From Cytophagales bacterium (GTDB lineage: Bacteria; Bacteroidota; Bacteroidia; Cytophagales; UBA9547), in NCBI GenBank assembly GCA_033765235.1, contig JANRIG010000036.1, forward strand, positions 139,558 to 203,557: a stretch of 64,000 nt of DNA, read 5' to 3'. Each line of letters starts with the position of its first letter. Position 1 is the stretch's first letter. The translations under genes were made by a program, and so were the position numbers. The notes below the pieces were generated by a model. That model was not told the DNA's origin and made no database searches. It saw only the letters and a program-made list of their open reading frames with translations. This document shows, one piece after another, positions 9,026 through 13,003 of this stretch.

Positions 9026-10816
9026 ATGCATGTATTTTCAAGATGTATTATACTATTAGCCTGCCTTTTTTTGTATTCAGGCAATATATTTAGTCAGGAT
9101 ACTTATACTGTTGATGGGGCATCCTTCCATAAATACAGACTACTGAATACTAAAGATATACCTGATAGCATTATTATTTCTACTCCTGACTCTATACTCA
9201 AATATGAACCCATATCTATTAATTATGTTGCACCTAACGAACAATACTGGATATATGTCAAAGGGAACAATTCAGAAAAAAAAAATGTATGCTTGGTCAC
9301 TCTAAATGACTTTCCTGTGTATGACATATATCAAGTGGACAAATCAGGTAAAATCCTCAAAGTGGAGAAATTTGGGTATCAGAATAGTTCTAAGGATAAA
9401 AGGTTACAATTTATCTCACATGTATTCGCTATTGACAATACTACTGATGAATATAGAATATTCATCAAGCTCAAAGGCTTAAGATTTGCAACTGGTTTCC
9501 CTTTAGAGTTTACCCATTTGCACAATGCCGTAAATGAAGAGATAAATATGCGCGATATGCTATTCTTTAAGGTGGGTATTGTGCTGTTTACCATAGCCTT
9601 TAGTATGTTGCTTTGGATTAGATTTTGGAGTTGGCAATATTTGTATTTTACGTTGTTTTGCGTTTCATTTTTAGGATATATACAGATATACTCCAAAAAT
9701 ATACATAATTATTTTTCAATGAAAAATTATATTGTTGGCTACGATTATTTCTCATACCCTTATGTGAGTATGATTATATTCATAGTACTTTTTGCTGCTT
9801 CATATATTGAGTTGAGCAGGTATAAATTTTTCTACTATACTTTATTAATAAGTATCACTATCCGTTTGCTGATATACTTATACTCGCTTTATAATCAAGA
9901 AATTATATTTTTTCATCCTGCTATTGACAATATATCTCTGTTCATAGTTTTAATAGCATACATCAAATATATGCATAAAGTAAAAACATCTTGGATTGTA
10001 TTCATCGCACTTTTGATTATGGCCATTACATTTTTATTTCATACATCATCATATTTTGGTTCAGGGTATTACCAATCTTATTTAGTCACTTTTTTTAATA
10101 TTCAAACAGTAGGATTTGTAGTATTTGTACTTTTCAGTATAAGTGTGGTGGCCAAATTTTGGCTCACACAACAGGAAAAAACAACAGCTCTAAACAATAT
10201 TGTAGAAGTGCAAGCAAAAAACAATCGAGAGCTCGAAAGGTTGGTAGAGATTCGTACCAAAACCATAATGGAGCAAGCCCAAGAAATAGCAGACCAGGCT
10301 GACAAAATACAAAAAATGAATGAATTACTCAAGATAGATAATACTAACCTAAAAGTAAATATAGAAGAAGTAAAACATGCCCAAATGATGCATAAAAATG
10401 TCAGTTTTGATGATTTTTTGGTTACCTACCCCGACAATGAGGCATGCCAGGCATACTTACATGAGCTCAAGATTGAGAAAAATATACAATTTGTTTGCAA
10501 CAAATGCGGGAACAGTGCAGGTACATTTATAGCCATCAATTATGGTACACGTTGTACTAAATGCGGTTATTTAGAGCCTGTTACATATAATACAGTCTAT
10601 TATAATGTAAAATTTCCACTTAATAAGGCATTTTACCTTACCTATTTGATAAGCACCAATCAGGTTTATACCCTCGAAAATATCTCAAAAATCATAAATC
10701 TGAGAAAACAAACTTGTTTTACATTTATTAATAAACTTAAAAATATAAAGATAAAAAAACATAAAATGAAACCCGGCGAAGAAGGGTGGATAAACTACAT
10801 ATTTACAGATGATTAA
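9026..10816 (+). CDS. 7TM-DISM membrane sensor with coiled coil and C-terminal IS1595-transposase-like Zn-ribbon/HTH domain
   Basis: Signal peptide, beta-rich extracellular domain, about 7 hydrophobic helices, S-helix-like ELERLVEIRT, then YPDNEACQAYLHELK...CNKC...CTKC...TVYYNVKFPLNKAFYLTYL. Confidence 0.8.
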   Translation: MHVFSRCIILLACLFLYSGNIFSQDTYTVDGASFHKYRLLNTKDIPDSIIISTPDSILKYEPISINYVAPNEQYWIYVKGNNSEKKNVCLVTLNDFPVYDIYQVDKSGKILKVEKFGYQNSSKDKRLQFISHVFAIDNTTDEYRIFIKLKGLRFATGFPLEFTHLHNAVNEEINMRDMLFFKVGIVLFTIAFSMLLWIRFWSWQYLYFTLFCVSFLGYIQIYSKNIHNYFSMKNYIVGYDYFSYPYVSMIIFIVLFAASYIELSRYKFFYYTLLISITIRLLIYLYSLYNQEIIFFHPAIDNISLFIVLIAYIKYMHKVKTSWIVFIALLIMAITFLFHTSSYFGSGYYQSYLVTFFNIQTVGFVVFVLFSISVVAKFWLTQQEKTTALNNIVEVQAKNNRELERLVEIRTKTIMEQAQEIADQADKIQKMNELLKIDNTNLKVNIEEVKHAQMMHKNVSFDDFLVTYPDNEACQAYLHELKIEKNIQFVCNKCGNSAGTFIAINYGTRCTKCGYLEPVTYNTVYYNVKFPLNKAFYLTYLISTNQVYTLENISKIINLRKQTCFTFINKLKNIKIKKHKMKPGEEGWINYIFTDD

Positions 10817-10845
10817 TAACAAATTTATTTTTTAATTTGTTATTA
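10814..10845. terminator. Perfect 12-bp AT-rich inverted repeat between convergent 7TM gene and tRNA-Glu (possible bidirectional terminator)
   Basis: TAATAACAAATT (10814-10825) and AATTTGTTATTA (10834-10845) with an 8-nt loop. Confidence 0.45.
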
Positions 10846-10846
10846 G

Positions 10847-10918
10847 TAGTCCGTAGGGGAATCGAACCCCTGTTTCCTCCGTGAAAGGGAGATGTCCTAA
10901 CCCCTAGACGAACGGACC
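10847..10918 (-). tRNA. tRNA-Glu (anticodon TTC), CCA not encoded
   Basis: Minus strand GGTCCGTTCGTCTAGGGGTTAGGACATCTCCC-TTTCA-CGGAGGAAACAGGGGTTCGATTCCCCTACGGACTA; acceptor stem, anticodon arm and T-loop GTTCGATTC are intact. Confidence 0.97.
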
Positions 10919-11068: not shown

Positions 11069-13003
11069 TTACAATATTTTACATTCTATCCTGCGGTTTT
11101 GTTTTCGGTTGGCATCTGTATCATTGGGTGCTACAGGCATTTTATCACCATAGCCTTTGAATTTTACACGACTTTGGTCTATGCCGTTTTCGACCAGGTA
11201 GTCAAATACAGATTCTGCGCGCTTGGTGCTGAGGTTCATATTATTGACAGCCAAGCCTACATTATCAGTGTGCCCGCTTATTTCTACTTTGAGGTCTGCA
11301 TTTTGGTTAAGAAAGTTGATGAGTTTGTCGAGTTCAGCGGTTGATTTTTTTTCTAATTTATACTTGCCTGTTTCAAAAAATATATTGTTGAGCGTAATGG
11401 ATAGGCCTTGCTTGATAGGGTCAAGGTACACATCTAAGTTGAGCGGGTCAAATTTTTGTTCGTTTTCAAAATTAAAAGCATGGCTTTTGTACAGGTATCC
11501 AAGCTTTTGTACATACAATCCGTATTGGGTATTTTCATTGAGCACTATAAGATAAGAGCCATTTACAGGGTCTGATTTTAAGAAACTTTCAGATTTGTTG
11601 GTTTTCAGATTTATGAGTTCTATCACTGCAGATATGGGCTGCTTGGTATCATTGTCATACACAGTGCCTTTGGCGTAGGTACATTTGTCTTTGCAGGACA
11701 CCTCTTGAGGTAGGGCAAACTCATATATGTAATATTTTTCATTGTTGTTTTGAGTTTTAGCTTCAGCAGATATATAAGCCTTTTGGCAATCTGCGGTGAT
11801 GAAAATAGATGATTCTTCTAAGTGTGTGTTGATAGGGTAGCCAAGATTTTGGGGTATAGACCAGTTGCTGAGTGAGTCTTTGTAGCAATAAAATATATCA
11901 AAACTGCCGTATCCCAAATGATAGTCAGATGCAAAGAAAAATGTAGACATAGTAGGGTGAATGAATGGGGCTACCTCTCTGCCGGGTGTGTTTATTAGGT
12001 CGCCAAGATTGAGCGGCGGGCTCCATCTGCCTTCGTGGTCGGCTTGAGCCATCCATATGTCTTCTTCTCCGTATCCGCCAGGGCGCTTGGAACTGAAGTA
12101 TATCGTTTTGCCATCGGGCGATAGAGAGGGCTGAGAGTCCCAAAAGGGAGAGTTTATTTTAGTACCCATATTCACGGGCTTGCTCCATATATTGCCCTCG
12201 TTGTATGATATATATAAGTCGCAGTCGGAGTCGTTGCGAGTAGCACCGCCGCATTTGGTAAATACCAGTACTTTGCCATCGGCAGATATGGTACAGGTAC
12301 CTTCGTTGAGGTTGGCACTGTTTATGTTTTCAGAAATAGGCTGAGCCTCCATCCATTTCCCGTCTTTGTTTTCGGATATGTACATGTCTTCATATTCCAT
12401 ACTTCCTATTTTTTCGCGTACGGTAAATACCATTTTGCTTTGGTCGGCAGTGGTCACCGGGAAATATTGTTTGTTGAATTTATTGATTTCCGGAGGAAGT
12501 CTTTGGGGTTGAATATTTACAGGGTGCTGTATATTTTGCAAAGCAAAGTCGCAAATGAGTATATATCGTTGTGCTTTTTCTAAAAATGGTTTTGGGTCTT
12601 TGTATCCAAACTTTATGTATCGAGTGTAGGCAGCTTTGGCATTGGCATAGGCACCGTCGTGCAGGTATATGTCTGCCAATATTCTGTACACCAATGAGTT
12701 GGTATAGTTTTTGTTAATTTTTAATATTTTTTCGAAATGATATTGCAACAATGGAATGTTGCGCTCAAAGTTTTTATACAACATCCCTAATTGAAAATGA
12801 GCATCTGTAAAATTGGAATCGCGCTCTACAGCTTCTTTAAATTTTTTTATGGAAATATCCCATTTACGGTCTTGCAGGTTTTTGATGCCCTCGTTAAATG
12901 CATTTATAGCTTTTTTGTTTTTAGAGGTCAGGTAGTTGTCTTGTGCCAATCCAATGCAGCACACTGACAACGAAAAATATAGTATATGTATTCTGCGTAA
13001 CAA
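11069..13003 (-). CDS. PorE-like OmpA-family protein (TPR + PD40 beta-propeller + carboxypeptidase-regulatory-like + OmpA C-terminal domain), T9SS/envelope associated
   Basis: TPR helices, repeated WDSQPSLSPDG/EVAPFIHP PD40 motifs, C-terminal NNIFFETGK...ISGHTDN...LSTKRAESV...NRRIE; a TAATTTTG -7 element lies at 13028-13035. Confidence 0.85.
   Translation of the reverse strand: MLRRIHILYFSLSVCCIGLAQDNYLTSKNKKAINAFNEGIKNLQDRKWDISIKKFKEAVERDSNFTDAHFQLGMLYKNFERNIPLLQYHFEKILKINKNYTNSLVYRILADIYLHDGAYANAKAAYTRYIKFGYKDPKPFLEKAQRYILICDFALQNIQHPVNIQPQRLPPEINKFNKQYFPVTTADQSKMVFTVREKIGSMEYEDMYISENKDGKWMEAQPISENINSANLNEGTCTISADGKVLVFTKCGGATRNDSDCDLYISYNEGNIWSKPVNMGTKINSPFWDSQPSLSPDGKTIYFSSKRPGGYGEEDIWMAQADHEGRWSPPLNLGDLINTPGREVAPFIHPTMSTFFFASDYHLGYGSFDIFYCYKDSLSNWSIPQNLGYPINTHLEESSIFITADCQKAYISAEAKTQNNNEKYYIYEFALPQEVSCKDKCTYAKGTVYDNDTKQPISAVIELINLKTNKSESFLKSDPVNGSYLIVLNENTQYGLYVQKLGYLYKSHAFNFENEQKFDPLNLDVYLDPIKQGLSITLNNIFFETGKYKLEKKSTAELDKLINFLNQNADLKVEISGHTDNVGLAVNNMNLSTKRAESVFDYLVENGIDQSRVKFKGYGDKMPVAPNDTDANRKQNRRIECKIL

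Follow-up and report, generated by a model that had tools for sequence, protein, structure and literature searches.

The 64,000-nucleotide (nt) stretch of DNA analysed here, hereafter the window, comes from a Cytophagales bacterium (GenBank assembly GCA_033765235.1, contig JANRIG010000036.1, positions 139,558 to 203,557 of the forward strand). Its list of open reading frames (ORFs) contains, at 9026..10816 (+), a frame of 596 amino acids (aa) with its stop codon at 10814-10816. The encoded protein, our target, is a membrane receptor of the 7TMR-DISM type that ends in a zinc (Zn) ribbon and a helix-turn-helix (HTH), and we found that this C-terminal module is homologous over its full length, ribbon and HTH, to the N-terminus of IS1595 transposases. 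An initial reading of the letters without database searches (the sequence-only reading) had proposed that an IS1595 Zn-ribbon/HTH was exapted as the output of a 7TMR-DISM sensor, which hmmsearch, BLASTP and hhalign all support. As judged from sequence comparison the module is a previously unrecognised output domain of the DNA-binding type with a traceable evolutionary source. We think it probable that the receptor is a membrane-tethered one-component regulator, which would control transcription directly from the membrane and without a phosphorelay upon an extracytoplasmic glycan signal.

Architecture of the receptor and homology of its C-terminal module

A full-length AlphaFold2 model of the sensor, calculated with 60 homologues as input (predicted local distance difference test, pLDDT, 85.6), was combined with Pfam matches and the alignments described below. 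The gene is divided as follows (TM, transmembrane).

9026..10816 (+), whole gene: 7TMR-DISM receptor with IS1595-derived output module (ORF list, Pfam, AlphaFold2 model)
9026..9097 (+), signal peptide, residues 1-24 (hydrophobic helix 2-18 in the model, SQ/D after it; visible in the sequence)
9098..9517 (+), extracytoplasmic DISMED2-type beta-sandwich, putative ligand (carbohydrate) sensor, residues 25-164 (strands 32-164 in the model)
9518..10180 (+), seven TM helices, 7TMR-DISM_7TM, residues 165-385 (PF07695 and model)
10181..10393 (+), long signalling helix, or coiled coil, that extends TM7 into the cytoplasm, residues 386-456 (model)
10394..10585 (+), IS1595-type helical pair and Zn ribbon, residues 457-520 (PF12760 covering 469-515; ribbon strands in the model)
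10445-10447 (+), fifth invariant Cys, C474
10496-10498, 10505-10507, 10553-10555 and 10562-10564 (+), ribbon Cys ligands C491, C494, C510 and C513
10586..10765 (+), HTH of three helices, homologue of that in the transposases, residues 521-580 (hmmsearch, BLASTP and hhalign alignments)
10766..10813 (+), family-specific C-terminal tail with a near-invariant Trp, KPGEEGWINYIFTDD, residues 581-596

Three comparisons carry the homology. A profile of 153 sensor modules was run with hmmsearch against genuine transposases, gathered from Bacteroidota genomes through a search for the DDE_Tnp_IS1595 catalytic domain, and matched them with 33-132 bits over their first ~125 residues, that is, the Zn ribbon and HTH. 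BLASTP aligned the target module with the L017 transposase, starting from the first residue of both, at 31% identity across 120 aa (E 2e-17). Profile-profile alignment with hhalign, in which the partner consisted of 11 transposase N-termini with the close L017 group left out, gave 99.7% probability (E 8e-27, 119 columns). The transposase alignments stop at module position ~122-126, before the Trp tail, and in the transposases the DDE domain comes there instead; the motif of this tail, G-W-x-x-L-I, is confined to the sensors, and the transposase KWF has become KAFY in their modules. On the target alone the Pfam profile Zn_ribbon_IS1595 (PF12760) spans positions 1-45 of 46 (residues 469-515) with 14.3 bits at a cut-off of 25.4. 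Three of the four other paralogues in the genome pass this cut-off (35.8, 27.0 and 33.9 bits) and retain the motif KW.NGF.C.KC that the target has lost.

The architecture described by the sequence-only reading, a signal peptide, an extracellular beta domain, about seven TM helices, a coiled coil and the C-terminal module, was confirmed by the ORF, Pfam and the AlphaFold2 model. The ORF contains the C-terminal sequence quoted there and indeed ends 25 residues after FINKL, but CNKC and CTKC are 15 residues apart and not 14. By fold, the closest PDB entry to the beta-sandwich is 3JYB, the DISMED2 domain in the periplasmic part of RetS (E 4e-5, TM-score 0.67), with CBM61, CBM6 and PA14 lectin domains next. 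The Pfam profile 7TMR-DISMED2 (PF07696) does not match the target itself and matches its paralogues. PF07695 (7TMR-DISM_7TM) matches residues 180-374 with 36.1 bits (cut-off 29), and the model places TM helices at 165-200, 203-222, 240-260, 267-290, 299-318, 322-343 and from 359 onward. TM7 runs on into the signalling helix as one unbroken helix 359-456 bearing the family motif N..LE..V..RT, in which N400, L403, E404, V407, R410 and T411 are invariant or nearly so in 60 homologues. A low-confidence hinge (441-454) separates this helix from the compact module at 461-591. Since the N-terminus lies outside and seven TM helices follow, the module would be located in the cytoplasm. A Pfam search of the target at E<=1 found no HisKA, HATPase or Response_reg domain, and an NCBIfam scan added nothing to the Pfam result. 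Sensor, TM segments and an HTH-type domain, the latter predicted with high confidence, are thus combined in one polypeptide without phosphorelay domains.

Modelled on its own (pLDDT 88.8, pTM 0.82) the module consists of two helices with the invariant Cys, the four-Cys ribbon and a three-helix HTH with helices at 78-89, 96-103 and 107-118 of the module. The putative recognition helix is LRKQTCFTFINKL; R560 and T563 in this region are common to the family and the aligned transposase helices are similar. The net charge of the module is +6 in the target, with a family median of +8. A PDB sequence search with the module profile returned generic Zn ribbons only (S27e, RpoP and TFIIB, E>=0.008), and in a Foldseek search with the module the ribbon (TFIIB-like) and the HTH (Lrp-, MarR- and DeoR-like) were matched separately, all weakly and none at E<=0.001. 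These PDB searches also yielded no structure of an IS1595 N-terminus.

These structural matches bear on a different reading of the module, namely that it is an output that does not bind DNA and instead contacts RNA polymerase, a sigma or anti-sigma factor, RNA or another protein partner, with regulation by sequestration. The only solved structures that the ribbon resembles, the TFIIB, RpoP and S27e-type ribbons, are protein or RNA binders, and the conserved family-specific Trp tail is a further point in favour. These ribbon matches are, however, generic and not significant, and the module, which is positively charged overall, has kept a complete transposase HTH whose recognition-helix region contains conserved residues. 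It also fills the slot that GerE or AraC HTHs occupy in analogous sensors, and a recurrent, partly palindromic element is found beside some members (see below). We therefore regard an output other than DNA binding as unlikely.

Nothing of the remaining transposase was found. The DDE_Tnp_IS1595 profile (PF12762) has 0 matches at E<=1 in the whole genome (3.36 Mb, estimated 100% complete), and the region is flanked by no IS-like inverted repeats, only by short AT-rich chance repeats, in accordance with the earlier statement that the DDE domain and terminal repeats are absent and the frame is intact. There are no multiple identical mobile copies either, the paralogues being only 26-31% identical to the target. 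The ORF stops 16 residues past the HTH, and in 155/155 family members the module lies <=39 residues from the C-terminus. A tRNA gene begins 30 nt past the sensor stop codon and so leaves no room for a DDE remnant:

10846..10918 (-), tRNA-Glu(UUC) gene (ARAGORN)

A 22-nt imperfect hairpin (10804-10825 / 10834-10855) spans the sensor stop codon and the 3' end of this tRNA.

Origin, spread and conservation of the module

A maximum-likelihood tree was built from the modules of 62 sensors and the N-termini of 24 transposases. The 62 sensor modules all formed one clade (SH-aLRT 99), sister (98) to a clade of L017-like transposases (96), with both nested among other IS1595 transposases. With one sensor clade whose sister is one IS1595 subgroup, the tree speaks for one domestication event, in which the module would have been captured from an IS1595 transposase. 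Members with 7TMR-DISM and with Reg_prop sensors interleave in the tree, a pattern that suggests later sensor swapping, of which the well-supported branches force no more than one switch. Together with its three closest relatives (P0002-P0004) the target makes up a subclade on a long branch, and this explains its weak Pfam score. The L017-like elements are abundant, active insertion sequences (IS) of ~1.0 kb in related Bacteroidota, with 785 homologues. Their ends, observed at loci L047-L054 (metagenome contigs) and L017, were defined from eight insertion sites. The left end (IRL) reads TAGGATTAAGTATAACGAGCG... and the right end (IRR) ...ACTTAATCCTA, overlapping the transposase stop codon. Close to the terminus a palindrome, ACTAATTAAATTAGT, is conserved and lies just upstream of a Bacteroidetes-type -7 box (TAttTTTG).

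The fusion is widespread. When a profile of the module was searched against 1.84 billion cluster representatives (50% identity clusters), 1259 matched at E<=1e-3, and with the limit at E<=1e-10 there were 521. Nearly all of the 150 best matches were proteins of either ~580-650 aa or ~980-1100 aa with the module at the very end, and the long class consists of Reg_prop beta-propellers, Y_Y_Y and the module, with no kinase or receiver domains. Being terminal on two unrelated types of periplasmic sensor, the module behaves like a signalling output domain. The sequence-only reading had expected similar architectures in other Cytophagales. Indeed, copies occur in 18/19 sampled genomes of the same taxonomic family as the window, 1-8 in each; the fusion is old, intact and widespread in Cytophagales. 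Other families of the order have mostly no copies, and in an even sample of the phylum sensor-type copies were present in only 3/151 genomes. Among named organisms, copies were seen in Cytophagaceae (Cytophaga aurantiaca, Sporocytophaga), Mucilaginibacter and Chitinophagaceae. The target's own genome contains five intact paralogues, four genes besides the target sharing its architecture, and one decayed copy, a sensor-module fragment at C34:3100-3324 (-) (locus L006) with several stop codons that is closest to the paralogue on C9. Three of the intact paralogues lie at C9:6262-8034, C12:4256-6058 and C36:21273-23069. Module-only metagenomic proteins of about 140-150 aa (P0015, P0056, P0091, P0109, P0118) were also seen; they could be free-standing forms of the module or gene calls cut off where a contig ends. 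Public names of members are inconsistent and include 'transposase', 'hypothetical protein' and '7TM diverse intracellular signaling domain-containing protein' (NCBI; proteins P0016, P0002), and one 617-aa receptor is labelled 'transposase [Cytophagales bacterium]'.

To describe constraint we compared the target with its orthologue in another genome (L027/G089). Identity rises along the protein from 31% in the ectodomain and 39% in the 7TM region to 51% in the signalling helix, 62% in the Zn ribbon, 72% in the HTH and 73% in the tail, and is 67% for the module as a whole. The rate of nonsynonymous substitution (dN) is 0.81 in the ectodomain, 0.56 in the 7TM region, 0.47 in the helix and 0.26 in the module; only dN is given by domain because the synonymous rate is saturated between the two orthologues. 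Five Cys residues, T523, K534, A535, Y537, T563 and W588 are invariant in 60-65 homologues. By these measures no part of the protein evolves as slowly as the module, which is under strong constraint.

The conservation data already refute the idea that the gene is a recent insertion accident or a decaying pseudogene without a function of its own, and we give it practically no weight. A decayed copy does exist in the genome and some database entries do carry the name 'transposase'. Against this stand the intact frame, an orthologue elsewhere whose module is two-thirds identical, hundreds of diverged members with one origin, the module as the most conserved part, and the lack of a DDE remnant or terminal repeat. 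The outcomes at the sequence level that the sequence-only reading had named as fatal to its proposal did not occur, in that the module matches IS1595 N-termini, the fusion is not unique and no DDE remnant adjoins it.

Genomic neighbourhood and a candidate operator

In the target's genome, three of the four other paralogues adjoin large secreted proteins that are paralogous to each other. Five such genes were found:

C9:8204-11179 (+), large secreted protein gene
C12:1-4044 (-), large secreted protein gene
C36:23277-27176 (+), large secreted protein gene
C34:1-2859 (-), large secreted protein gene
C8:122971-127959 (-), large secreted protein gene

Three of the five lie beside intact sensors, one beside the decayed fragment and one alone. 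Among the three that were compared the proteins are about 30-34% identical. They have an N-terminal domain of ~650 aa with the clan-A-glycosidase-like motif 'EIGNE[VL]WN' and later 'YE(T/G)G', followed by PKD/Ig (CHU_C-type) repeats. The ~650-aa domain has no sequence match in Pfam or the PDB, and these neighbours may represent an undescribed glycoside hydrolase family. The decayed sensor fragment lies upstream of an intact LamG/PKD-type gene, and the intergenic region there still clearly resembles its counterpart at the C9 locus. The fourth paralogue adjoins a GT2 gene, a GH42/14-like protein and a 7TMR-DISM histidine kinase. This kinase (C12:292293-294431 (+); DISMED2, 7TM, HisKA and HATPase) lies two genes from the paralogue (paralogue C) and carries 'N.ELxxKVxxRT' after TM7 as do the sensors with IS1595 output, which suggests a shared signalling-helix mechanism.

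A survey of the immediate neighbours at 64 sensor loci, from this genome and relatives, showed the association of the family with genes for carbohydrate-active enzymes (CAZymes), SusC/SusD and secreted proteins. The LamG/PKD secreted family is next to sensors at 16/64 loci and GH3 at 9/64. Further immediate neighbours are GH9, GH18, GH5 with CBM4_9, GH2, and CE2/CE4 with a type IX secretion system (T9SS) tail, as well as one CBM6 protein, one NPCBM protein and two SusC/SusD pairs. Among culturable carriers, a member adjoins a GH3 gene in Cytophaga aurantiaca DSM 3654, and in Mucilaginibacter straminoryzae RS28 one lies upstream of SusC/SusD. One Reg_prop member lies directly after SusC/SusD and near GH32, a position beside SusC/SusD that is also held by hybrid two-component systems (HTCS), SusR or BguR. 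The earlier suggestion of carbohydrate sensing fits these CAZyme and SusC/SusD neighbours together with the DISMED2/CBM-like ectodomain, and the family probably acts as a switch of adjacent polysaccharide-degrading genes directly from the membrane.

A de novo search for motifs in the intergenic stretches that separate sensors from LamG/PKD genes yielded an element near AACTAnnTTGAwwwTCAAA with the palindromic core TTGAwwwTCAA. This candidate operator, which may also be written TTGAwwwTCAA..AGTT, is weakly palindromic and recurs beside some members. The more convincing evidence comes from cross-validation, for which a matrix was trained on 12 sites, all from other genomes. The three held-out loci of the target genome scored 11.3, 11.6 and 12.6 bits and the locus of the C34 remnant 10.3 bits; a score >=11 bits was reached in only 5.7% of 563 control intergenic regions. 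Among relatives outside the training set, 8/51 sensor-adjacent gaps reached >=11 bits as compared to 1/69 other gaps of the same loci (Fisher p 0.0045), and the best of these gaps lie between sensors and GH5/CBM4_9, CBM6 and NPCBM genes. The element is absent from the Cytophaga GH3 loci. Generic k-mer enrichment gave borderline AT-rich words only. An 'AAGCG/AACCG' word seen by eye near paralogues was dropped, as a k-mer test of 45 sensor flanks against 412 control regions found no enrichment.

The sequence-only reading had also raised the possibilities that the module binds operators derived from IS ends or represses IS1595 elements, and neither was borne out. The ends and the subterminal palindrome of the sister IS have no significant match to the candidate element (best 8.4 bits), and IS ends were rejected on this ground as its source. 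A transposon-related role, in which the module would bind IS1595 ends and repress or direct transposition on an external signal, can draw on the homology to the transposase region expected to recognise IS ends and on the activity of L017-like elements in related Bacteroidota. The genome nevertheless holds five intact paralogues and no IS1595 DDE transposase at E<=1, the closest IS ends and palindrome are unlike the recurrent element, and it is genes for CAZymes and transport, and no IS elements, that lie next to the sensors. Such a role thus seems to us very improbable.

The locus of the target itself differs from those of its paralogues in its neighbours. It is flanked by nuoC, divergent from the target across a 443-bp AT-rich gap, by the tRNA-Glu gene, and by an OmpA/PD40/TPR gene that is convergent with the sensor:

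11069..13003 (-), OmpA/PD40/TPR outer-membrane protein gene (Pfam)

The latter is the only neighbour conserved with the orthologous locus L027, where a 61%-identical OmpA/PD40/TPR gene (L027:2612-4531) lies directly upstream of the sensor on the same strand, 33 nt from the open reading frame of the sensor (stop to stop). The relative orientation of the two genes is opposite between the loci, which indicates a local inversion. Downstream of the orthologue L027 carries the gene of a 1949-aa LamG/PKD protein whose best homologues in the target genome are on another contig. The sensor/OmpA adjacency is thus conserved between the two loci, but the probable cargo gene has been separated from the sensor in the target genome. 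Related OmpA/PD40 proteins are also found beside two non-orthologous sensors (L117, L123).

Several observations weigh against a directly acting, DNA-binding glycan regulator, some of them specific to the target. Its ribbon scores under the Pfam cut-off, it lies on a long branch and lacks the KW.NGF motif kept in its paralogues, and neither CAZyme nor SusC/SusD genes adjoin it. In its own flanks the candidate element does not reach significance (9.6 and 9.3 bits). In the family as a whole, the information content of the motif is just slightly above that of shuffled controls, the element could be a promoter feature rather than an operator, and no solved structure matches the whole module, either in the PDB sequence search with the module profile or in Foldseek at E<=0.001.

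Relation to known regulators and proposed mechanism

The closest characterised analogue of the sensor family is BguR of Formosa agariphila, a protein with Reg_prop, Y_Y_Y, one TM helix and a GerE HTH that was genetically shown to activate a laminarin polysaccharide utilisation locus (PUL) without phosphorelay (bioRxiv 10.64898/2026.01.10.698779). BguR and SusR, as the members of this family would be, are membrane-spanning Bacteroidota regulators made of one polypeptide and working without phosphorelay. They sense glycans in the periplasm, carry their HTH at the C-terminus behind an alpha-helical linker, and have their genes next to those for glycan utilisation. BguR has the same sensor architecture as our Reg_prop/Y_Y_Y members, with its GerE HTH in the position of the module. 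It differs from the target in sensor, beta-propellers and one TM helix as opposed to DISMED2 and seven, and its output is a GerE/LuxR HTH whereas here it is a transposase-derived Zn ribbon and HTH known from its sequence. The HTCS of Bacteroides PULs occupy the same genomic niche beside SusC/SusD and CAZymes and have their sensor type in common with the Reg_prop/Y_Y_Y branch. Their HisKA, HATPase, receiver and AraC domains, however, were undetected in the target and in the Reg_prop members, and signalling would therefore be ATP-independent. Further afield ToxR, CadC and ChiS embody the same concept of DNA binding anchored to the inner membrane, ChiS in response to a polysaccharide signal, chitin. 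They belong to another phylum, use unrelated DNA-binding folds and differ in topology, the DNA-binding domain of ToxR and CadC being N-terminal and combined with one TM helix.

The 7TMR-DISM type was reportedly defined by Anantharaman & Aravind in 2003. Its known receptors, such as RetS and LadS (PF07695/PF07696), share with the target the DISMED2 ectodomain, the 7TM bundle and a cytoplasmic helix leading to the output, but the outputs known are histidine kinases (with or without a receiver plus AraC or GerE), GGDEF and PP2C. A 2023 census of transmembrane regulators counted 294 with 7TMR-DISM_7TM, and 7TMR-DISM regulators with AraC or GerE outputs are known. Zn_Tnp_IS1595 was recorded there once, as an accessory domain and not as a DNA-binding domain; the sensor family went uncounted because the MiST list of DNA-binding domains, on which the census relied, lacks PF12760. 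Full-text literature searches turned up no paper in which 7TMR-DISM is connected to IS1595 or PF12760 is treated functionally. On the transposase side, the N-terminal ~125 residues of the L017-like Bacteroidota subgroup (P0152-P0271), comprising a helical pair with a conserved Cys, the CxxC..CxxC ribbon and a three-helix HTH, are the homologous part. The sensors differ from these transposases in having no DDE_Tnp_IS1595 domain, terminal inverted repeats or mobility, in the added Trp tail, and in the position of the module at the C-terminus of a membrane receptor. The sequence-only reading had spoken of a new class of one-component regulator. What is new is the DNA-binding output and its source; given SusR, BguR and the 7TMR-DISM regulators with HTH outputs, a new class is too strong a term.

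Our proposal for the mechanism is as follows. The extracytoplasmic DISMED2 beta-sandwich, which resembles carbohydrate-binding modules, would detect a ligand, probably a glycan or oligosaccharide. The signal would be relayed through the seven-helix bundle and a long, presumably dimeric signalling helix to the cytoplasmic Zn ribbon and HTH, which would bind DNA and control transcription without phosphorelay. In this scheme DNA binding, dimerisation, the kind of ligand, whether genes are switched on or off, and which genes this copy controls are our inference. In evolutionary terms, the module would have been captured once, lost the DDE domain, gained the Trp tail and later been shuffled between 7TMR-DISM and Reg_prop/Y_Y_Y sensors. 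One variant of the mechanism has the receptor as a pro-form from which the module is cleaved upon the signal to act as a soluble regulator. The module-only metagenomic proteins (P0015, P0056 and P0109), though possibly gene fragments, and the low-confidence hinge would fit cleavage. No protease gene is consistently adjacent, however, the continuous and conserved signalling helix is typical of direct conformational coupling, and regulators of the BguR, SusR, CadC and ToxR type work from the membrane. We consider cleavage improbable and favour control by the intact, membrane-tethered receptor.

The regulation of glycan-utilisation genes is poorly understood in Cytophagia and Sphingobacteriia, including cellulose degraders without many classical PUL regulators. 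The sensor family is a concrete candidate for this regulatory role, and it yields testable pairs of sensors and genes together with a candidate operator. It also offers a clear bacterial case, with DNA binding deduced from homology, in which the DNA-binding domain of a transposase was recruited as the output of a transcription factor and the donor lineage can be identified. A wider hypothesis, for and against which we see the chances evenly divided, is that one ancient domestication of an IS1595 DNA-binding head gave rise to a family of ATP-independent, membrane-anchored and glycan-responsive transcription factors. This family would have spread by sensor swapping between 7TMR-DISM and HTCS-type propellers and would be a principal regulator type of Cytophagaceae for secreted cellulolytic and T9SS cargo genes, acting through an operator of the TTGAwwwTCAA type. 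If this hypothesis were correct the family would be a bacterial counterpart of the transposase-derived transcription factors of eukaryotes.

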